This document shows, in pieces, positions 1 through 8,238 of a stretch of 29,835 nt of DNA (position 1 is the first letter of the stretch; every line of letters begins with the position of its first letter). The notes under the pieces are model-generated. The model ran no database searches and was not told the origin of the DNA. It worked only from the letters and a program-made list of their open reading frames with translations. The DNA comes from a virus (lineage: Duplodnaviria > Heunggongvirae > Uroviricota > Caudoviricetes). A program made the translations under genes and the position numbers. The stretch lies in IMG/VR virus record IMGVR_UViG_3300016476_001281. One strand, given 5' to 3'.

Positions 1-1197
1 TTGACCAGTTGTTATTGTTTCTACATTATACTCAATATCTGATAAATTAGTCCATATAGTATTTAAAGATGATTTAAGATCATAACTAATTTTTTCAATT
101 TTATTCTCAATATCTGATAATACTAATTCAAAACATATTGCATTTCTACCTGATTTATCTTCTTTATAATTTCTTAATTTAGATAAACTTATTCCAGAAC
201 CTATAAGAAATTCACCTAATTTATCAATATTTAAGATATAAATAAATATTCTATTATTCTGTTTTAGACCAATTATATAATTATCACAAAATAATTTTTT
301 TACTTTTATTTCTTTGGTATTTCTATTTTGCCAAGTTGCAATATGATCTAATGGGTCTTTTGTCTTAGGATCTCTAAATAATCTAATATTTCCATTATCA
401 CTCATCCAGTCAACTAACTTAACCTGATATGTTGTTTTACCATCATGACCAACAATATCTACTTTACTATTATCATCTGGAACTTTACCATTTAATAAGC
501 CAGCAATAAAAGATTCAAATAAGAAACCACCACTTGTAGCATTAAATTTTTCTTTAATTTCTTCCAAATATTTAAGAAGTAATAATGATGAAATCTTCTG
601 TTGTATCTGACCTGTAAAATTTTCATCCTCAAATCCTCTTATATTTAATGGATTTTTTAACTTACCTAATTTATCTTTTAAACCAATTACACCCTTTTGT
701 CTTGATAATCTATTTGAGAATCTTTCTACCTTTTTAAGAACCTCTTTATCTATTTTAACATTAACCCAACCAGTTGGCAAATTATCAACTAAATCAGAAT
801 ATTCAGGTGCATTAAATTTATAATCTTCAATATTACTATTTCTTCTCCAAGGTGCATTTTCTAATCTATTAATTACAACCTCACCTTTACTATTTTTCAA
901 TTCATCAGTTCTCTCATCAAAGTTAAAACCTATTATATAACCATTTATATCAATACCTGCAATATACTCATGAGCTCTGTTAGGACTTGTTTCTTTATCT
1001 TTATTTAAGTTATCTATTTCATAACTCCAGTCAGAGTCAACTATAAGTTCAACAAGTTTACTATTTCTTTTTACATTTATAATAAAACCTTTTCTATTAT
1101 GTAGAACTCCATCCTCATCTATTACCTTAGTAAGATACTTTTCCCTAGTTCCTAAAGTTCTTTTTTCAAAAATTCCATATTTCTTAATATGTTTCAT
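1..1197 (-). CDS. Hypothetical protein, 3'-truncated by the window edge, with a PD-(D/E)xK-like nuclease motif and the MKHIKKYGIFE N-terminal motif
   Basis: Manual translation from the reverse-strand ATG at 1197: MKHIKKYGIFEKRTLG...GFLFESFIAGLLNGKVPDDNSKVDIVGHDGKTTYQVKL...; open to base 1; absent from the ORF track because its stop lies outside the window. Confidence 0.75.
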   Translation of the reverse strand, partial: MKHIKKYGIFEKRTLGTREKYLTKVIDEDGVLHNRKGFIINVKRNSKLVELIVDSDWSYEIDNLNKDKETSPNRAHEYIAGIDINGYIIGFNFDERTDELKNSKGEVVINRLENAPWRRNSNIEDYKFNAPEYSDLVDNLPTGWVNVKIDKEVLKKVERFSNRLSRQKGVIGLKDKLGKLKNPLNIRGFEDENFTGQIQQKISSLLLLKYLEEIKEKFNATSGGFLFESFIAGLLNGKVPDDNSKVDIVGHDGKTTYQVKLVDWMSDNGNIRLFRDPKTKDPLDHIATWQNRNTKEIKVKKLFCDNYIIGLKQNNRIFIYILNIDKLGEFLIGSGISLSKLRNYKEDKSGRNAICFELVLSDIENKIEKISYDLKSSLNTIWTNLSDIEYNVETITTGQ

Positions 1198-1220
1198 AGT
1201 TAAATTTAAAATTTATATTC

Positions 1221-1232
1221 ATATATATTAAT
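1221..1232 (-). promoter_or_regulatory. Putative phage late-promoter motif (TTAATATATAT)
   Basis: Variant of the recurrent TTTWATATATA motif, about 25 nt upstream of the ATG at 1197. Confidence 0.5.
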
Positions 1233-1269
1233 ATTTTAAACTCAAACTTTAATTTTATTTAAAATATAA

Positions 1270-1300
1270 TTTGTAATTGTAAAATATATTTGTATATTTG
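1270..1300 (+). promoter_or_regulatory. Bacteroidota-type housekeeping-sigma promoter
   Basis: TTTG 1270-1273, 19-nt spacer, TAtaTTTG 1293-1300. Confidence 0.65.
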
Positions 1301-1373
1301 CAGTGTTGATTTAACAACTGGTGGCGTTAAAGAAATTCACGATAGTAATTTCCTAAAATTAAAAATTAGGAAT

Positions 1374-1706
1374 ATGAACTGGAAGAGATTAGAAAAACAC
1401 AATGTATTAGACATTGTTAGAAGAGAATCATTATTAGAATTTTCTAAACAGGAAATTTTAAGATGTGTAGAAAATTCTAGAAAGAATGGATTTCATTATT
1501 ACTCTTATAATATTGAAAACATATTACAAGAATTAGTAAATGAAGGTAATTTAGGAGTTTACTACATATCGGTTAAAGTAGAACCTTTAAAATATTCTTG
1601 GCCATCTTATAAAGAGACAGACAATAAAGTTGGTTCAAAATCTGTTGCCATCTATAAATCATTGAAGGCAATGAGAAATGAAAGAATTGAAGAATTATTA
1701 AAATGA
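1374..1706 (+). CDS. Hypothetical protein ending in the shared C-terminal motif (RNERIEELLK)
   Basis: The track start at 1290 (TTG) lies inside the promoter, so ATG 1374 (MNWKRLEK) is preferred. Confidence 0.7.
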   Translation: MNWKRLEKHNVLDIVRRESLLEFSKQEILRCVENSRKNGFHYYSYNIENILQELVNEGNLGVYYISVKVEPLKYSWPSYKETDNKVGSKSVAIYKSLKAMRNERIEELLK

Positions 1707-1714
1707 TAAAAAAC

Positions 1715-1872
1715 AGACAGGTGGCGGAATTGGTAACGCTGTATCATACATATTGTAAGCTAAAGGCTCAACTTAGAGATAACTGTGCACCAGAGGACAA
1801 CCATTAAGATAACCACAATGTATGAATAAGGAGATAGAGATATTAATACAGGTTCGAATCCTGTCCTGACTA
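1715..1872 (+). ncRNA. tRNA-like RNA with a 93-nt insertion in place of the anticodon loop
   Basis: Acceptor AGACAGG/CCTGACT (one mismatch); D-arm GCG-GAATTGGTAA-CGC; stem GTATC/GATAT; T-arm ACAGG-TTCGAAT-CCTGT. Confidence 0.65.
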
Positions 1873-1887
1873 CAATTTAAGATTAAA

Positions 1888-2466
1888 ATGAAAGTAATAG
1901 GTATAACTGGTGGTATTGGGTCTGGTAAGACAACAATAACTAAACACATTGAAAGTTTAGGTTATCCTGTTTACATTGCAGATGATGAAGCAAAAAAATT
2001 ACTTGATACTACTGATGTAGTAAAAGAGTTAGTTAAAACATTTGGAGAAGAAATTATTGTAAATAATTTGGTAGATAAGAAAAAGTTAGCTACTTTTGTA
2101 TTTGGAAATAAGGACAATCTCAAAAAGTTAAATGAGATTGTCCACCCAAGGGTAAGAGAACATTTTATCAACTGGTCTAAACAATTCAATTCAATTGTAG
2201 TTAAAGAAGCTGCAATTTTATTTGAAAGTGGTGCAAATAAAGATTGTGATTATACAATTTTGGTTACAGCACCAGAAGAAGTAAGAGTTGATAGAGTTAT
2301 TAGTAGAGATAATACTAATAGAGAAGATGTTCTTAAAAGAATTAGGAGTCAATGGTCTGATGAAGATAAAGCCAAATTAGCAGATTTTGTGATAGAAAAT
2401 GTTGATTTAGAAAAATCTAAGAGAGAAATTGAAGAAATTTTGAAAAAAATTGAAAAAAATAGTTAA
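1888..2466 (+). CDS. coaE: Dephospho-CoA kinase
   Basis: GITGGIGSGKT P-loop, IADDEAK, LNEIVHPRV, EAAILFE, R-V-x-x-R-D and Q-W-S motifs typical of CoaE. Confidence 0.92.
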   Translation: MKVIGITGGIGSGKTTITKHIESLGYPVYIADDEAKKLLDTTDVVKELVKTFGEEIIVNNLVDKKKLATFVFGNKDNLKKLNEIVHPRVREHFINWSKQFNSIVVKEAAILFESGANKDCDYTILVTAPEEVRVDRVISRDNTNREDVLKRIRSQWSDEDKAKLADFVIENVDLEKSKREIEEILKKIEKNS

Positions 2467-2490
2467 AAATTACAAAAGGGAACAAAACTT

Positions 2491-2502
2491 TTTAATATAT
2501 AC
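2491..2502 (+). promoter_or_regulatory. Putative late-promoter motif TTTAATATATAC
   Basis: Exact 12-mer also at 5812 and 26145; 17 nt upstream of tRNA-Met. Confidence 0.55.
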
Positions 2503-2519
2503 AACTATAAAAGATATAT

Positions 2520-2592
2520 CGCGGGATAGAGCAGTAGGCAGCTCGCAAGGCTCATAACCTTGAGGTCGGTGGTTCGAGTCCACCTCCCGCTA
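2520..2592 (+). tRNA. tRNA-Met(CAT), initiator-like
   Basis: Cloverleaf; CAAGG-CTCATAA-CCTTG; C1:U72 mismatch typical of fMet; CCA not encoded. Confidence 0.92.
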
Positions 2593-2629
2593 CTAAGAAA
2601 TTAAAATAATAAAAAAAAATACAAAAAGA

Positions 2630-2661
2630 TTTGGTAGATAAAAATATTCACCTTACTTTTG
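2630..2661 (+). promoter_or_regulatory. Bacteroidota-type promoter upstream of the leader peptide and tRNA array
   Basis: TTTG 2630-2633, 20-nt spacer, TActTTTG 2654-2661. Confidence 0.7.
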
Positions 2662-2707
2662 TAGAAGAATTAGAAAACAAATAAACAATTATTAAAAAAT
2701 AGAAAAA

Positions 2708-2800
2708 ATGAGAACAATTACTAACATAACAACAATAGAAGCTATAGGCGGATATGAGGCGGGGTATAGAATACCATCGGTCAGAAAAGTTATGGAATAA
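2708..2800 (+). CDS. Putative 30-aa leader peptide MRTITNITTIEAIGGYEAGYRIPSVRKVME
   Basis: ATG 2708 to TAA 2800 between a promoter and a terminator; 4 Thr and 3 Ile in the first 10 codons. Confidence 0.55.
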   Translation: MRTITNITTIEAIGGYEAGYRIPSVRKVME

Positions 2801-2833
2801 AGTAATGTAACTCATAAACATTATAAATCATAT

Positions 2834-2867
2834 AACCCAATCTGACAAAAACAGATTGGGTTTTTTT
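2834..2867 (+). terminator. Intrinsic terminator (attenuator candidate) directly upstream of the tRNA array
   Basis: AACCCAATCTG-ACAAAAA-CAGATTGGGTT followed by a T run. Confidence 0.8.
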
Positions 2868-2880
2868 ATTGAAATAAACT

Positions 2881-2963
2881 GGGTAGATATGCAAGTGGTT
2901 AAAGCTGGCAGTCTGTAAAACTGCTCTCATTAGAGTTCGGGGGTTCGAATCCCTCTCTGCCCA
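2881..2963 (+). tRNA. tRNA-Tyr(GTA)
   Basis: GGGTAGA/TCTGCCC acceptor; GCAGT-CTGTAAA-ACTGC; long variable arm; TTCGAAT loop. Confidence 0.9.
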
Positions 2964-2972
2964 CAAGTACAA

Positions 2973-3056
2973 GGGTGTACGATGAAGTTGGAGAGTCATG
3001 GCGGTCTGTAAAACCGTTGCCTTTTGGCTGAGTAGGTTCGAATCCTACTACACCCA
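2973..3056 (+). tRNA. tRNA-Tyr(GTA)
   Basis: GGGTGTA/TACACCC acceptor; GCGGT-CTGTAAA-ACCGT; long variable arm. Confidence 0.88.
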
Positions 3057-3064
3057 CTAAAAAT

Positions 3065-3137
3065 GGTCTATTCGTCTAGTTGGTTAGGACACTACCCTTT
3101 CAAGGTAGCGACGCGGGTTCGAGTCCCGTATAGACTA
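3065..3137 (+). tRNA. tRNA-Glu(TTC)
   Basis: GGTCTAT/ATAGACT acceptor; CTACC-CTTTCAA-GGTAG. Confidence 0.9.
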
Positions 3138-3144
3138 CAAATAT

Positions 3145-3216
3145 GCTACTGTCTTCTAATGGTAGGAAACTAGTTTTTCAAACTGGGAGATGCGGGTTCG
3201 AGTCCCGTCAGTAGTA
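3145..3216 (+). tRNA. tRNA with TTC anticodon (Glu by anticodon; body unlike the other two Glu tRNAs)
   Basis: GCTACTG/CAGTAGT acceptor; CTAGT-TTTTCAA-ACTGG. Confidence 0.8.
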
Positions 3217-3220
3217 CAAA

Positions 3221-3270
3221 AGTAAGTAGAGCTACCTAACCGGGCATTGTGCTTGAGTAGAAGACTTACT
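3221..3270 (+). ncRNA. Inter-tRNA multi-stem hairpin of unknown function
   Basis: AGTAAGT/ACTTACT, CTAC/GTAG, CGGGCA/TGCTTG with purine-rich internal loops. Confidence 0.4.
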
Positions 3271-3275
3271 AATTT

Positions 3276-3361
3276 GGGTGGAAGGATGAGCAATGGTGCG
3301 ACGCCGGTCTGTAAAACCGGCCCTTTAGTTAGGATGGTGGGTTCGATCCCCACTCCACCCA
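3276..3361 (+). tRNA. tRNA-Tyr(GTA) with an atypical D-arm
   Basis: GGGTGGA/TCCACCC acceptor; CCGGT-CTGTAAA-ACCGG; T-loop TTCGATC. Confidence 0.8.
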
Positions 3362-3376
3362 CAAAAAAATAAATAT

Positions 3377-3450
3377 GGTCTATTCGTCTAGTCAGGTCAG
3401 GACGTGCCCCTTTCACGGGTAAGACACGGGTTCGAATCCCGTATAGACTA
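3377..3450 (+). tRNA. tRNA-Glu(TTC)
   Basis: GGTCTAT/ATAGACT acceptor; TGCCC-CTTTCAC-GGGTA. Confidence 0.9.
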
Positions 3451-3458
3451 CAATTTTT

Positions 3459-3532
3459 GGGCAAGTAGCTTAGATGGTAAAAGCGCATGTCTTATACACA
3501 TGAGATAGAGGGTTCGATACCCTCCTTGCCTA
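3459..3532 (+). tRNA. tRNA-Ile(TAT)
   Basis: GGGCAAG/CTTGCCT acceptor; CATGT-CTTATAC-ACATG. Confidence 0.88.
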
Positions 3533-3542
3533 CAAAAAGTGA

Positions 3543-3600
3543 TTTATAGTTAGATTAGGTTATGAGTAAATAAAGGTGAAAATCCCCTACTAACTATAAA
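3543..3600 (+). ncRNA. Inter-tRNA hairpin of unknown function
   Basis: Perfect 11-bp stem TTTATAGTTAG/CTAACTATAAA plus TAGG/CCTA. Confidence 0.4.
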
Positions 3601-3644
3601 CTACAAAAATACCGGTAGGTGATTTAATTTTAATTCAAATTAGC

Positions 3645-3713
3645 AATCTGTTCGTCTAGGGGACTAGGACGCCACATTGGGTGGAAACATAGGTTCGAAT
3701 CCTATACAGACCA
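3645..3713 (+). pseudogene. Degenerate tRNA (Glu/Gln-type body) with a shortened anticodon arm
   Basis: TC-GTC-TAG...GAC D-arm; CCAC-ATTGG-GTGG mini-arm; intact ATAGG-TTCGAAT-CCTAT; only TCTGT/ACAGA pairs in the acceptor. Confidence 0.6.
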
Positions 3714-3793
3714 AGTAATGAGAATAAAAATTAATACGAAACTTAGATATGATAGTCGCGAATTGATTATTTAAGAGTTCAGTCACCTTATAT

Positions 3794-3866
3794 GCGGAAG
3801 TAGCTCAATTGGTAGAGCTCCTGCCTTCCAAGCAGGTTGTTGCGGGTTCGAGTCCCGTCTTCCGCT
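3794..3866 (+). tRNA. tRNA-Gly(TCC)
   Basis: GCGGAAG/CTTCCGC acceptor, U73; CCTGC-CTTCCAA-GCAGG. Confidence 0.93.
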
Positions 3867-3872
3867 CTAGAA

Positions 3873-3928
3873 TGTTGAGTTAGGCTGTGTATGCCACAAC
3901 AACCTTTGCAAAGGTGAATACACACTCA
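3873..3928 (+). ncRNA. Inter-tRNA structured element
   Basis: TGAGT/ACTCA, GTGTAT/ATACAC, ACCTTT-GC-AAAGGT. Confidence 0.4.
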
Positions 3929-4001
3929 GCAGTAGTAGTGTTAATGTGTAACATATGTGGCTTCCAACCACAAGTTGTCGGTTCGAGTCCGGTCTATTGC
4001 A
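3929..4001 (+). tRNA. tRNA with TCC anticodon (Gly), atypical D-loop and A73
   Basis: GCAGTAG/CTATTGC acceptor; TGTGG-CTTCCAA-CCACA; the D-loop lacks GG. Confidence 0.78.
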
Positions 4002-4019
4002 CAAAAGAGAGTTTTAAAC

Positions 4020-4031
4020 TTTTATATATAG
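4020..4031 (+). promoter_or_regulatory. Putative late-promoter motif TTTTATATATAG
   Basis: Exact 12-mer recurring at 15356, 24140 (minus strand), 24850 and 29262. Confidence 0.55.
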
Positions 4032-4077
4032 TTCTACCAACTTATTTATAGATTGGAAGAAAAATTAAAAGTTAAAA

Positions 4078-4515
4078 ATGATTTGTACAGTATGTAAATT
4101 AGATAAAGATGAAAATGATTTTCATTTTAAGGATATTAAAAGAATTAAAAGAAGAAGTTATTGTAAGTCTTGTGTTAAAGTATATAGAAAGGAGTATTAT
4201 AGTAAAAATAGAAATGAGGCAATAGAATACTCCAAAGTGTCAAGTAAAAAAAGAAAATTACAACTAAGACAATATATATGGGACTATCTAAAAGAAAATA
4301 ATTGTATAGTATGTGGTGAGAATGATCCAATTGTTTTAGAATTTGATCATAGAATACCTGAGGAAAAGTTTATGTCAATAAGTGACATGATTACAACTAA
4401 GTATGGCTTAGATAAAATAAAATTAGAAATTGAGAAATGTGATGTTTTGTGTAGTAATTGTCATAAAAGAAGAACATCTAAACAATTTAATTGGTATAAT
4501 GAAATAATAAAATAG
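4078..4515 (+). CDS. Free-standing HNH endonuclease with Zn-binding CxxC pairs
   Basis: CTVC...YCKSC; CIVCG...LEFDH...CDVLCSNCHKRRT. Confidence 0.85.
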   Translation: MICTVCKLDKDENDFHFKDIKRIKRRSYCKSCVKVYRKEYYSKNRNEAIEYSKVSSKKRKLQLRQYIWDYLKENNCIVCGENDPIVLEFDHRIPEEKFMSISDMITTKYGLDKIKLEIEKCDVLCSNCHKRRTSKQFNWYNEIIK

Positions 4516-4519
4516 AATT

Positions 4520-4590
4520 GCAGAATTTGTATAAGGGTATTACACCGGCTTACCACGTCGGTGATGAGGGTTCGAGTCCCTTATTCTGCT
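4520..4590 (+). tRNA. tRNA-Gly(ACC)
   Basis: GCAGAAT/ATTCTGC acceptor, U73; CCGGC-TTACCAC-GTCGG; T-arm GAGGG-TTCGAGT-CCCTT. Confidence 0.8.
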
Positions 4591-4597
4591 CACAGAA

Positions 4598-4656
4598 ATG
4601 GTGGATGTTATAACCTCTTGAATACTGACGAGTATCTAAGTTATAGTTGAAACCAT
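4598..4656 (+). ncRNA. Inter-tRNA long imperfect hairpin
   Basis: ATGGT/ACCAT, TATAAC/GTTATA, ATAC-TGACGA-GTAT. Confidence 0.4.
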
Positions 4657-4661
4657 AGGAA

Positions 4662-4735
4662 GGGGAATTAGCTCAGATGGCTAGAGCGCTTGCCTTGCAC
4701 GCAAGAGGCCACCGGTTCGACTCCGGTATTCTCCA
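4662..4735 (+). tRNA. tRNA-Ala(TGC)
   Basis: GGGGAAT/ATTCTCC with G3.U70; CTTGC-CTTGCAC-GCAAG. Confidence 0.93.
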
Positions 4736-4744
4736 CTAATAATT

Positions 4745-4818
4745 GGGGTCACATGTACCAAGGCAGGCGAGTTTGGTTTGCAACCAGACTGTGGTGGGTT
4801 CGATACCCATTGGCTCCA
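4745..4818 (+). tRNA. tRNA-Ala(TGC) with an atypical D-arm
   Basis: GGGGTCA/TGGCTCC with G3.U70; TTTGG-TTTGCAA-CCAGA. Confidence 0.78.
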
Positions 4819-4830
4819 CACAAAGAAAAA

Positions 4831-4861
4831 TTTGAATAATTAAAAACTATTCTTATCTTTG
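4831..4861 (+). promoter_or_regulatory. Bacteroidota-type promoter for the Thg1-like gene
   Basis: TTTG 4831-4834, 19-nt spacer, TAtcTTTG 4854-4861. Confidence 0.7.
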
Positions 4862-4968
4862 TATTGGTTTAAAAAACCAAAAATTAATTTATTAACTATC
4901 ATTTTCCTTTGTCAAAAGGTGATCAAAAAAAATTTCAAAGGAATTTGAAAAAAAGGAAAATGTAGTTT

Positions 4969-5796
4969 ATGAAAACAACAAACAAAAAAGATTCCTTCGG
5001 GGATAGAATGAAGCTTTACGAAGCACAAACATGTGGTATCAAAATGATGCCAAGAATTCCAGTAGTTGCAAGACTTGATGGTAAAGGATTTTCAAAATTC
5101 ACTAAAGGTCTAAAAAGACCTTATGATGAAAGATTATCTAATCTTATGATTGAAACCACCAAATATCTTGTGAAAGAAACCAATGCAAACTGTGGTTACA
5201 CTCAGTCAGATGAAATCACACTTGTTTGGTACACTGATAAAATTGATTCATCCATCTATTTTAATGGAAGACTTTTCAAAATGATTAGTGACCTTTCTGC
5301 AATGGCATCTGTTTTTTTTAACAGAGAACTTAGTAAATATCTTCCTGAAAAAGCAGATAAACTACCAAGATTTGATAGTAGAGTGTACAATGTACCAACT
5401 CTTGATGAAGCAGTAAACTCTTTCCTTTGGAGAGAACAAGATGCTACTAAAAACTCTATCAGTATGGCAGCTCAACACTATTTCTCACACTCTGCTCTTA
5501 ATGGGAAGAATGGTTCAGAAAAACAAGAAATGTTATTTTCTAAAGGTGTAAACTGGAATGATTACCCAACTTTCTTCAAAAGAGGTACTTATGTACAAAG
5601 AAAAAGAGTTCTTACTCCTTTCTCAATAGAAGAAATTGAAAAACTTCCTACAAAACACAATGCAAGAAAAGATCCAAACTATATCATTGAAAGATGGGTA
5701 GTTGATAAAGTGGAGCTTCCACCACTTACTAAAATCTCAAATAGAGTTGATGTAATTATGTTTGGTAAAGATGTTGTAATGAAAAGTCCAGAGTAA
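4969..5796 (+). CDS. tRNA(His) guanylyltransferase Thg1-like protein (3'-5' polymerase family)
   Basis: FGDRMKLYE, RLDGKGFSKFT, GYTQSDEITL, FDSRV, WREQDATKNSI motifs. Confidence 0.92.
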   Translation: MKTTNKKDSFGDRMKLYEAQTCGIKMMPRIPVVARLDGKGFSKFTKGLKRPYDERLSNLMIETTKYLVKETNANCGYTQSDEITLVWYTDKIDSSIYFNGRLFKMISDLSAMASVFFNRELSKYLPEKADKLPRFDSRVYNVPTLDEAVNSFLWREQDATKNSISMAAQHYFSHSALNGKNGSEKQEMLFSKGVNWNDYPTFFKRGTYVQRKRVLTPFSIEEIEKLPTKHNARKDPNYIIERWVVDKVELPPLTKISNRVDVIMFGKDVVMKSPE

Positions 5797-5810
5797 ATCT
5801 GGACTTTTTT
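5782..5810 (+). terminator. Intrinsic terminator
   Basis: AAAAGTCCAGA-GTAAA-TCTGGACTTTT followed by TT. Confidence 0.8.
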
Positions 5811-5811
5811 A

Positions 5812-5823
5812 TTTAATATATAC
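5812..5823 (+). promoter_or_regulatory. Putative late-promoter motif TTTAATATATAC
   Basis: 3 nt upstream of the ATG at 5827. Confidence 0.55.
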
Positions 5824-5826
5824 CTT

Positions 5827-6285
5827 ATGAGATATTTGAAATTATTTGAAAGAATATTTAGTAGTGATGAATCCAGAGTTAAAAAAATGTGTGAAGAGTA
5901 TTTAATCTATTTATTAGATGAAAATTTTCAACTAAAATTTTTTACACAACCATATGATAAAATTAATATTCATTTAACAAAGAAAGGTGTAGATAAAAAT
6001 GTTATTACTTTTGATTGGGATGATGTTAAATCTGATTTAATTCCACTTATTGAAGTTTTAAGTCAACAAACTAAAAATGATGATTTAAAATTTAGACTTA
6101 CTAATGATAAAGGTACTAAAAATTATGTAACAATTATGTGTAACTATGAAAATGGTAAAGGTGCATTTGGTATGACTTATGATTTAAACTCTATATTAAA
6201 TGATGAAATTCAAAATAGACATAGACTTAATATAAAAGATATTTGTTTTGTAGTTAAGAAACTAAAAGGAGGATTATGGGGTTAA
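5827..6285 (+). CDS. Hypothetical protein with MRYLKLFE N-terminal motif; paralog of 6289-6684
   Basis: ORF track; shared C-x3-L-x-YLLDE-x-F and F-x-W...K-x-D-x-IP-x-IE-x-L blocks. Confidence 0.75.
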   Translation: MRYLKLFERIFSSDESRVKKMCEEYLIYLLDENFQLKFFTQPYDKINIHLTKKGVDKNVITFDWDDVKSDLIPLIEVLSQQTKNDDLKFRLTNDKGTKNYVTIMCNYENGKGAFGMTYDLNSILNDEIQNRHRLNIKDICFVVKKLKGGLWG

Positions 6286-6288
6286 TTA

Positions 6289-6684
6289 CTATTTAAGGTT
6301 TATATAGAAGAAGATACCTGAAAGTAGATAATCAATTTCAATTTCATCTAAATTATCTATAAGTTCTGTTCTAATACCTGATACTGTATTTGCAACTTTT
6401 ATTTGAGTAGTTGAATTAAATTTATCTATTAAGCTAATTCTTTCATCACAAGTATCATACTTTTTATATAAGTATTCAATAAATGGTATTATATCATCTT
6501 TGTATTCAGACCAATAAAATAAATCTTTTGGTATTTTCAAAAGAATTGAAATATATGTACTTCCATTATAAGTTGATACTTCAAATCCTTCATCTAGTAG
6601 ATAAGCTAATGCATTATCACAAAAGTCTTGTACTTCTTCTATATCAACACTCTCTTTTATTAAAAACTTTTTTATATACTTCAT
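6289..6684 (-). CDS. Hypothetical protein with MKYIKKF N-terminal motif; paralog of 5827-6285
   Basis: ORF track; same shared blocks. Confidence 0.75.
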   Translation of the reverse strand: MKYIKKFLIKESVDIEEVQDFCDNALAYLLDEGFEVSTYNGSTYISILLKIPKDLFYWSEYKDDIIPFIEYLYKKYDTCDERISLIDKFNSTTQIKVANTVSGIRTELIDNLDEIEIDYLLSGIFFYINLK

Positions 6685-6687
6685 AAC

Positions 6688-6699
6688 ATATATATAAAA
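6688..6699 (-). promoter_or_regulatory. Putative late-promoter motif TTTTATATATAT
   Basis: 3 nt upstream of the ATG at 6684. Confidence 0.5.
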
Positions 6700-6719
6700 T
6701 ATTTTTTTTATATTTGCAT

Positions 6720-7430
6720 ATGGAAAAATTTCAAGTTTTTGGTAGTGAAGATAGTTTAGACTATGATGTTATGGTATTTGTTGATGAAATACCTGAAATC
6801 ATAGACCATTCTCATACATTGTGTAAAATGTACAATGCAAAATTGTCTAAAGTATTAACTGATAAACCTCTAAACTGTAACTTAGCTATAGTTGCAGATG
6901 GTTTGATTGTTAAAGTATTCAAAGGAACTCCTGATGAAGTTAACAATGCACTTTTCTATACCTATGATTTTCATACACAATATCATCCTTTAGTAGTTAA
7001 AGCTCCTATTGTAAGAGAATATGATATGAAAATCTTGAGAGCTTACAGAAATATCTTATCATTCTTTTCAAGAAGTGAATTAAGAACTATTATCAAACCA
7101 GCTTTAAGAGGTGATTTAAGAGCTAAAATACCTGTGATGAAAATGATTGACTTTGAAACTATGAAAGAGTTTCCTGGTAAAAAAGAATCAATCAAAGACA
7201 TCTACAAAGTAATGGCATTCCAGTTTGGTCAATTATTCTCTTTAGTTGATGGTTTTGAAAAAGACTCCTATACTAAAAGTGGTATCATACAAAACTATCC
7301 GGACTTGACACCAATGTTACTTAGACAAGAATTGTCAGAAAAAGATTACAAAACTTTAAATATCTATTTAGATAGACTGATTAAATTATCAGAAGAAAGA
7401 GTAGATAAAATGTTAAGATTGGTAGAATAA
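6720..7430 (+). CDS. Nucleotidyltransferase-like protein (pol-beta superfamily motif)
   Basis: FGSEDSLDYDVMVFVD fits the GS-x-x-x-x-D-x-D motif; ATG 6720 preferred because the TTG at 6714 lies in the TAtaTTTG element at 6709-6716. Confidence 0.55.
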   Translation: MEKFQVFGSEDSLDYDVMVFVDEIPEIIDHSHTLCKMYNAKLSKVLTDKPLNCNLAIVADGLIVKVFKGTPDEVNNALFYTYDFHTQYHPLVVKAPIVREYDMKILRAYRNILSFFSRSELRTIIKPALRGDLRAKIPVMKMIDFETMKEFPGKKESIKDIYKVMAFQFGQLFSLVDGFEKDSYTKSGIIQNYPDLTPMLLRQELSEKDYKTLNIYLDRLIKLSEERVDKMLRLVE

Positions 7431-7496
7431 TATTATAGTTATATTATATATCATGATGTTACATGTTTTTTATAAAATCAATTAAAATTAAACCTA

Positions 7497-7736
7497 ATGA
7501 AAAAATTCTTAATTACATTTATTGTATCATTTATTGTGTTCTATCTATTAGAACATCTTATCTCACATATATTCAATATAAATCTACATACACTTGATTT
7601 TGGGTGGTTAGGTTGGTTTGGATTCATTTTAGTATATGGATTTAAGTTTCACATTTTTTGCTGTCTTATACCTCTTATATTTACTTCATATAAGTGCAGA
7701 CATAAAAAATGTGGTCATGAACATTGTTCTAAGTAA
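7497..7736 (+). CDS. Small membrane protein
   Basis: Two hydrophobic segments and a Cys/His-rich C-terminus. Confidence 0.65.
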   Translation: MKKFLITFIVSFIVFYLLEHLISHIFNINLHTLDFGWLGWFGFILVYGFKFHIFCCLIPLIFTSYKCRHKKCGHEHCSK

Positions 7737-8238
7737 TTTTCTTAAAAATTAGTTTACAACTTAGGTTATGTGCCAACTTTCTAATGAAAACATCATTGGC
7801 TTTAGTTGAGTGAAGAAGTTTTGGTTTCTTGATAATATCAAATGAACCATCTTCATTCATATAAATTAAACCTGCATAATCTGGAACTTCATCTACAGAG
7901 ATTAAATCTTTAGGAGTAACAAAATTAAAATAATTTGGAAGTAAATACACCAATTCTCCTTTTCTGGTCTTGGTGTATTTCTCATTTATAATAAGAGTAT
8001 GCTTTTCTTTTATAAAATCTTTTTTATAATCCGCTTTACTTATTTTTATTTCATATTCATAAATATAATCAGATTTAGATATTGATATTACATCACATTC
8101 TTGTAGTCCCATACCAGTAAAGTGAGTGGTTATAGGTGAATGAGATTTTTCATAAAGATACATACAAAGAGCAGCTTCTATATTTTTTGACTTTGAATTA
8201 TCTCTTTTTATTTTATTAATTGAACTTTTTCTTGACAT
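7729..8238 (-). CDS. MmcB-like PD-(D/E)xK nuclease-fold protein
   Basis: ECDVISIS...EYEIKISKADYKKD...PNYFNFVTP...VPDYAGLI; ATG 8238 (MSRKSS) preferred over the track start 8319, which overlaps the next gene. Confidence 0.65.
   Translation of the reverse strand: MSRKSSINKIKRDNSKSKNIEAALCMYLYEKSHSPITTHFTGMGLQECDVISISKSDYIYEYEIKISKADYKKDFIKEKHTLIINEKYTKTRKGELVYLLPNYFNFVTPKDLISVDEVPDYAGLIYMNEDGSFDIIKKPKLLHSTKANDVFIRKLAHNLSCKLIFKKIT

Follow-up and report, generated by a model that had tools for sequence, protein, structure and literature searches.

Leader-peptide attenuators of enterobacteria include multivalent ones, such as thrL, which senses Thr and Ile, and ilvL, which senses Ile, Val, and Leu; trpL, hisL, pheL, and leuL are further known leaders. 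The pheST operon of E. coli, which encodes phenylalanyl-tRNA synthetase, is controlled by the pheM leader attenuator. T-box riboswitches (RF00230) also make a terminator/antiterminator decision in a leader and report the status of tRNA. Bacterial tRNA and rRNA operons (ppGpp/DksA, Fis) and the tRNA cluster of bacteriophage T4 are controlled at the promoter level or by processing. To our knowledge, no codon-matched leader ORF has been reported for bacterial tRNA operons or for the T4 tRNA cluster.

The tRNA genes of bacteriophages are usually seen either as a fixed supplement to codon usage or as a counter to defenses that target tRNA. How the expression of these genes is set is largely unknown. 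Here we analyze the region in front of a tRNA array in a sequence of 29,835 nucleotides (the whole of which we call the window) from a virus of the class Caudoviricetes, IMG/VR record IMGVR_UViG_3300016476_001281. The element in this region is very likely a ribosome-mediated (leader-peptide) transcription attenuator of a phage tRNA operon, with the reservation that no expression data exist. This reading is supported by the match between leader codons and array tRNAs, by 28 related units, by exclusively synonymous change in the matched codon run, and by the geometry of the folds. If it is true, the phage has a direct feedback loop on its tRNA supply and a built-in readout of the codons that limit translation during infection, and attenuation is applied outside the genes of amino-acid metabolism and synthetases. 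The principle of attenuation is already known; the novelty lies in tRNA genes as the regulated target in a phage, for which we found no description in the literature searched. That search covered full texts, not of all journals, and leader-peptide control of tRNA genes was undescribed there for phages and cells alike.

The proposed element resembles the thrL/ilvL class in having a promoter, a short ORF with a run of regulatory codons, an intrinsic terminator, and an antiterminator that excludes the terminator fold and has its 5' strand in the last part of the ORF. In both, the position of the ribosome is the signal, and several amino acids are sensed by one leader. Unlike that class, the phage element would control 11 tRNA genes instead of biosynthetic enzymes, and the sensed product, charged tRNA, includes the product of the phage operon itself. 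It is viral, has no sequence or Rfam likeness to the enterobacterial leaders, shows no evident 1:2 anti-antiterminator, and has a promoter and a translation start of the Bacteroidota type. Thus it works like the class without being a member of it. The pheST/pheM system is similar in applying leader-peptide attenuation to a gene of the translation apparatus and not to amino-acid biosynthesis; however, it controls a synthetase, senses a single amino acid, and involves no tRNA block. T-box riboswitches share the leader decision that reports tRNA status, but a T-box binds uncharged tRNA via a specifier codon and needs neither a ribosome nor an ORF. With bacterial tRNA operons and the T4 cluster the locus shares clustered tRNA genes that are controlled together or expressed as polycistronic precursors. 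An Rfam cmscan of positions 1-8000 with E up to 1 gave no match in 2594-2880, either to the T-box or to amino-acid leader families such as Thr_leader, His_leader, Trp_leader, and Leu_leader.

The window is AT-rich and phage-like. Its array consists of 11 tRNA genes on one strand (2881-4736, +): three Tyr(GTA), three Glu(TTC), one Ile(TAT), two Gly(TCC), one Gly(ACC), and one Ala(TGC). The array thus serves five amino acids, i.e., Tyr, Glu, Ile, Gly, and Ala, and tRNA-Thr is absent. The first gene, a tRNA-Tyr, starts at 2881, and tRNA-Ile(UAU) occupies 3459-3533. No second leader or terminator was found within the array. One more tRNA gene, tRNA-Met(CAT) at 2520-2593 (+), lies upstream of the leader promoter, and from this position we infer that it is outside the gated unit; its position is the same in the type-B relatives examined. 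An HNH-like endonuclease ORF (4078-4515; Pfam E 1e-3, which is under the cut-off) separates a tRNA-Gly(TCC) from tRNA-Gly(ACC) and is probably a mobile insertion in the array.

Several observations concern the tRNA genes and their surroundings. The tRNA region is flanked by a CoaE-like kinase gene (1888-2466, 5' of tRNA-Met; Pfam E 1.4e-41) and, 3' of the array, by a Thg1-like gene of the tRNA 5'-end repair family (4969-5796; E 1e-29). In the acceptor stem of tRNA-Met (2520-2593) the first and last positions appear unpaired (C versus U, judged by eye), which resembles an initiator tRNA. The tRNA-Gly at 4520-4591 has the anticodon ACC with A at position 34, which is unusual in bacteria and phages. 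Weak Rfam tRNA-like matches without an ARAGORN call occur at 1715-1872 (38 bits), 3645-3713 (31.7), and 4747-4818 (21.5). The first of them spans 158 nt and may contain an insertion. These three matches could represent degenerate or non-canonical tRNAs.

The nearest phage record to the window is LR745206.1, an uncultured phage of 634,780 bp, which is among the megaphages of more than 630 kb (PMC9723777). Its counterpart of the locus, with about 75% identity, has the tRNA-Met, the promoter, an ORF of 28 codons, a terminator with compensatory changes, and the tRNAs. Further relatives came from a scan of viral contigs that used the conserved beginning of the ORF as its pattern. Three of the ten pattern matches (L004, L006, and L010) lay inside large ORFs and were discarded as chance matches. 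The scan gave five further homologous leaders and one divergent leader (L002/L007). We then surveyed LR745206, LR756502, and three IMG/VR contigs for leader units with an automated scan that considered every tRNA behind a gap of at least 230 nt. A unit had to have a terminator at most 110 nt upstream of the tRNA and an ATG-started ORF ending shortly before. This survey yielded 28 ORF-terminator-tRNA units with 26 distinct leaders. Under the scan criteria no terminator was called for a few blocks, among them the Asn/Leu/Val block of LR756502 (in L035) and the Lys/Phe/His blocks in L042 and L043.

A first-pass annotation of the window, made without database searches, had proposed a host-type promoter at 2630-2661, a 30-codon ORF, a terminator, the first array tRNA at 2881, and two antiterminator pairings. 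All of these are present at the positions given in this text. It had combined them into a ribosome-sensing leader with a terminator/antiterminator gate and feedback by the array tRNAs, and our analysis supports this combination. The term "host-type" holds in the sense of a Bacteroidota-type promoter: a sigma-70 scan found no plus-strand promoter at 2630-2661. The site instead matches a Bacteroidota sigma-A-type promoter with a -33 element TTTG (2630-2633) and a -7 element TACTTTTG (2654-2661), a TAnnTTTG box; the pattern scan gives a spacer of 20 nt. In flavobacteria, TAnnTTTG serves as the -7 box of sigma-A promoters (PMC9723704). The same study reports "strong clues" for leader-peptide attenuation at amino-acid operons of these bacteria, which have the same promoter type. 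The TTTG/TAnnTTTG pattern occurs at 11 sites in the window versus 2.4 expected, and 24 of the 28 related leaders are preceded by a homologous T[TA][TA]G-N17-23-TAnnTTTG.

The promoter is followed by an A-rich 5' untranslated leader without a Shine-Dalgarno sequence (2662-2707, +), which is conserved in relatives. We infer a transcription start near 2668; it is unmapped. An A-rich start context lacking a Shine-Dalgarno sequence fits the translation starts of Bacteroidota. In one related leader (L048, on the contig of L008) an extra insertion of about 30 nt with a small hairpin GTCAC/GTGAC is observed at about 1330-1365, between the -7 box of the promoter and the 5' untranslated region of the leader.

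The leader ORF (2708-2800, +; 30 codons) keeps its frame in relatives. It contains four Thr codons and five Ile codons (four of them ATA), as well as GC-rich codons; these counts of the first-pass annotation are confirmed. Its inference that Thr and Ile are the sensed amino acids failed. Sensing of Thr/Ile as in thrL is rejected, since the array has no tRNA-Thr and the Thr/Ile-rich start of the peptide (TITNI) is shared with leaders of other arrays. What the annotation had not seen is that codons 10-20 (2735-2767, +) encode IEAIGGYEAGY, in which every codon specifies an amino acid of an array tRNA. This match is directly observed. A simulation with the amino-acid usage of the window itself gives P of about 2.5e-5 for an array-matched run of 11 codons, and all five amino-acid species of the array are present among the codons of the leader. 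The GC-rich codons, which had been remarked on as unusual, are the Gly and Ala codons of this run. The link drawn between the ATA codons and tRNA-Ile(UAU) held, and the ATA codons of the run match this tRNA.

Decoding was assessed with simple wobble rules. Ten of the 11 codons of the run are readable by the array anticodons, and the same is true of 13 of the 15 matched codons in the whole leader; the unreadable ones are ATT (codon 4) and GCT (codon 12). Two relatives have ATC at one Ile position. Among five close relatives four codons of the run vary, always synonymously; the codon that directly follows the run encodes R, T, or I in the same relatives. We consider it likely that the sensor is the run Ile(ATA)-Glu-Ala-Ile-Gly-Gly-Tyr-Glu-Ala-Gly-Tyr and not the Thr/Ile codons, an inference that rests on the sequence alone.

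The start of the ORF has a separate module. Its N-terminal box ACAATTACTAACATA (2714-2728, +), which encodes TITNI, is conserved across relatives and is identical in all type-B leaders except L034, which has two differences. TITNI is also present in the divergent leader L002/L007, which precedes another type of array: its ORF goes on with H, Q, L, S, and R residues and is followed by a terminator and Ser, His, His, Arg, Ser, Arg, and Gln tRNAs. A search of LR745206 for the 15-nt box with up to two mismatches found a single true copy, the remainder being equal to the control count, and the other leaders of LR745206 are without the box. The role of the box is a matter of inference; it may help ribosomes to load, act as a spacer, or form the 5' side of a 1:2 helix.

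Support for translation of the ORF is only indirect, i.e., translation is inferred from the open frame and the synonymous change in the run. In eight relatives the frame runs uninterrupted through 28-33 codons in spite of indels. On the opposite strand, the corresponding part of L001 is covered by no ORF longer than 25 aa. The first-pass annotation had named conservation of the leader as a check; both the frame and the matched composition are kept.

An untranslated small RNA, with the 5' box and the hairpins as its functional parts, is an alternative that can be all but excluded. In its favor, the full leader folds better than its shuffles (z -5.0), and the nucleotides of the 15-nt box do not vary among type-B leaders, L034 excepted; the region matches no Rfam family. 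Against it, the frame is kept open through indels, and neither the third-position substitutions nor the matching of codons to tRNAs is explained at the RNA level.

The terminator of the leader (2834-2867, +) has a stem of 11 bp (2834-2844/2852-2862) with five G-C pairs, a loop of 7 nt, and a T7 tail; the terminator alone has -15.2 kcal/mol. In eight relatives 98.9% of the alignment cells pair. The T run starts 20 nt and ends about 13 nt before tRNA-Tyr. A promoter of the array downstream of the terminator had been named in advance as an observation that would refute the attenuator; no promoter fits between the T run and tRNA-Tyr. Compensatory changes had also been suggested as a check, and they are found at two pairs of the terminator stem.

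The competing fold joins a 5' strand in the last codons of the ORF (2780-2794, +; GTCAGA at 2780-2785 and GTTATG at 2789-2794) to a 3' strand at 2831-2846 (+; TATAAC at 2831-2836 and TCTGAC at 2841-2846). The 3' strand overlaps the 5' arm of the terminator, and therefore the two folds are mutually exclusive. Between the stop codon and the terminator, an inner hairpin GTAATGT/ACATTAT (2802-2824, +) is present in both folds. The computation of alternative folds, a further check proposed at the outset, showed that the antiterminator is the minimum-energy fold of 2778-2851 (-15.0 kcal/mol, z -4.24, none of 200 shuffles as stable). GTCAGA is invariant, and its six pairs with the terminator 5' arm are retained in eight of eight relatives. 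The 6-bp core of the antiterminator is either invariant or changed only to wobble pairs in these relatives, without a double compensatory change. In the arm-only duplex test the window type was no better than shuffles; in contrast, the whole three-tier structure beats shuffles.

The same geometry recurs in other leaders. The antiterminator folds of three of them have z from -3.95 to -5.1 versus shuffles. In 15 of the 28 units the in-ORF strand pairs with its own terminator arm better than shuffles do (p<0.05). Paralogous leaders have differing terminators, each with its own matching in-ORF strand; in L027 the pairing is supplied by a 9-nt in-ORF copy of the terminator 3' arm. With the A site on the last sensor codon, the antiterminator strand starts a median of 12.5 nt further on (window: 15 nt), which is about the front edge of the ribosome.

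The dependence of the two folds on the ribosome is a prediction of a model. In this model a stalled ribosome masks a footprint that reaches from 15 nt ahead of the first base of the A-site codon to 12 nt past it, together with all RNA 5' of the footprint, and the RNA available just before the terminator 3' arm is made is folded. For the window, the probability that the terminator 5' arm is paired is 0.69 for an A site anywhere in codons 2-20. It falls to 0.60 at codon 21 and to 0.27 at codon 22, and it does not exceed 0.14 between codon 24 and the stop codon. Thus the zone permissive for antitermination is predicted to end with the last sensor codon. All 26 distinct leaders show the same profile (mean 0.59 at sensor codons versus 0.11 at the final three).

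With the 3' arm present and at equilibrium, the terminator wins at every ribosome position, with P about 0.95 (-19.3 versus -15.0 kcal/mol). A purely thermodynamic switch is ruled out by this flat probability; since the terminator is favored regardless of the ribosome, the switch must be kinetic, as in classical attenuators. The state of the leader in the absence of translation is less clear. The full-length minimum-energy folds pair the 5' box with the region of the stop codon, which suggests a 1:2 anti-antiterminator, and the full leader is more stable than shuffles, as given above. In the co-transcriptional model, the untranslated leader still forms the antiterminator (P 0.60) and no clear 1:2 anti-antiterminator appears, and therefore the default state without translation is uncertain.

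The folding results bear on a rival in which the ORF does sense decoding but the output is RNA processing or stability, or Rho-type polarity, the hairpin with its U-tract being a 3' end or processing signal. Two points favor this rival. The codon match demands translation-dependent sensing and leaves the output step unfixed, and equilibrium folding never disfavors the terminator. Against it, the hairpin and its T7 tail form a textbook intrinsic terminator. In most units the 5' arm of the terminator takes part in a significant alternative helix, and a strand of this helix lies at ribosome-edge distance from the last sensor codon. We regard the rival as very unlikely.

The proposed attenuator would act as follows. 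Host RNA polymerase would start at the Bacteroidota-type promoter at 2630-2661 and transcribe the leader, and a ribosome would translate the 30-codon ORF, in which codons 10-20 would be a multivalent sensor for Ile(AUA), Glu, Ala, Gly, and Tyr. If any of the matching charged tRNAs is scarce, the ribosome would stall in the run with its leading edge just short of 2780. The strand 2780-2794 could then pair with the emerging 2831-2846 and sequester the terminator 5' arm, and the polymerase would read into the array. If decoding is fast, the ribosome would move over 2780-2794 to the stop codon and block the antiterminator; the 2834-2862 hairpin would form, and transcription would end 12-20 nt before tRNA-Tyr. 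The array products would relieve the stall, and the whole would be a negative-feedback homeostat of tRNA supply. Its logic would be that of OR: a shortage of any single species switches the block on. Hence it appears likely, without experimental proof, that the phage makes the array tRNAs only when ribosomes run short of them. Translation, the coupling of ribosome and polymerase, and the response of read-through to scarce charged tRNA are inferred, and the host is unknown.

The survey of related megaphages shows that the design is conserved. All four large arrays of LR745206 are gated by leader units, several of the arrays surveyed also have internal gates, and the leaders spell out the tRNAs that follow them. 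Seven consecutive Gln codons (L036, 1938-1991) precede four tRNA-Gln genes; an SSRSRSS run (L033, 3621-3695) precedes Arg, Ser, and Arg tRNAs; PQPQDQDP (L028, 1704-1799) precedes Pro, Asp, and Gln tRNAs; HKNFSKSHKWFS (L026, 1881-1976) precedes His, Phe, Trp, Lys, and Ser tRNAs; and a 20-residue run of T, I, N, V, C, and S (L040) precedes Asn, Ser, Ile, Val, Cys, and Thr tRNAs. On average, 98% of the amino-acid species of a block are found in its own leader, and the anticodons of the leader's own block can decode 279 of the 320 matched codons. In a permutation test the true pairing of leaders with blocks was uniquely best in four of four genomes (1/120, 1/120, 1/120, and 1/24).

The split of the sensor also follows the split of the array. 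In L001 and L005 the Ile(TAT), Gly, and Ala tRNAs have a second leader of their own inside the array, with many I, G, and A residues, and the first leader senses mainly Tyr and Glu, without the Ile/Gly/Ala run. The window and L003 represent the type with one gate and one combined run. Beyond the N-terminal module, paralogous leaders have no common peptide.

These data weigh against the ORF being an ordinary gene of a small phage protein, with the tRNAs made by leaky read-through and the match in composition a coincidence. Like any small gene, the ORF lies between a promoter and a terminator and has its start codon in A-rich surroundings, and there is indeed conservation at the amino-acid level. 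However, the composition of the leader tracks the tRNA block in 28 units, the pairing is the best one in every permutation test, paralogous leaders share no peptide apart from the N-terminal module, and seven Gln codons before four tRNA-Gln genes are a hallmark of an attenuator. This explanation is very unlikely.

A second regulatory signal has to be considered. The motif TTTWATATATA occurs in 10 copies in the window versus 0.93 expected, including one at 2491-2501, 19 nt before tRNA-Met, and one at 4020-4030, within the array and 5' of the HNH-like ORF. Leaders A, C, and D of LR745206 have a longer form, CTTTTTAATATATAAG, immediately before their ATG. The motif is a candidate phage-specific, perhaps late, promoter, although this is no more than a possibility. 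Should the 4020-4030 copy be a promoter of this type, Gly(ACC) and Ala(TGC) might be expressed without the gate.

Another rival takes the terminator as constitutive. In that case it would insulate the array from the host-type early promoter, most of the tRNA would come from a phage-directed polymerase that starts at TTTWATATATA motifs and ignores the hairpin, and the ORF would be a by-product or have another role. The enrichment of the motif, its copies before tRNA-Met and within the array, and its location just upstream of leaders A, C, and D of LR745206 favor this view. On the other hand, it leaves unexplained why leaders spell the tRNAs of their own block, why the run changes only synonymously, and why in-ORF strands match the terminators. 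Moreover, in LR745206 the motif is upstream of the leader, so that transcripts starting there still pass the gate. This rival too is very unlikely, and codon-matched attenuation remains the preferred reading.

A bolder form of this reading, which we consider likely, is that megaphage tRNA genes are self-sensing modules: each block has its own codon-matched attenuator, and some gates lie inside arrays. If this is true, a phage gauges the decoding capacity of the infected cell codon by codon and tops up only those tRNAs that are short. The shortage may come from codon-usage mismatch, from host shut-off, or from host defenses that cleave or deplete tRNA. The match between leader and block also gives a simple and testable rule for the annotation of small ORFs preceding tRNA arrays, and the leaders offer compact modular sensor parts for synthetic biology.

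Three internal attenuator units of the relatives have no promoter of their own and lie directly after a tRNA: L036 (1938-1991), with its seven Gln codons, and L043 (2578-2655) and L047 (2966-3043), which have Ser/Arg runs. As these promoterless units follow a tRNA, gating can nest in one transcript. A separate observation concerns the tRNAs of the relatives: several tRNA-Lys and tRNA-Glu genes (L026, 2794-3059; L034, 1262-1347; L005, 9107-9193) measure 84-87 nt, which would fit long variable arms and is unusual for tRNA-Lys and tRNA-Glu identities.
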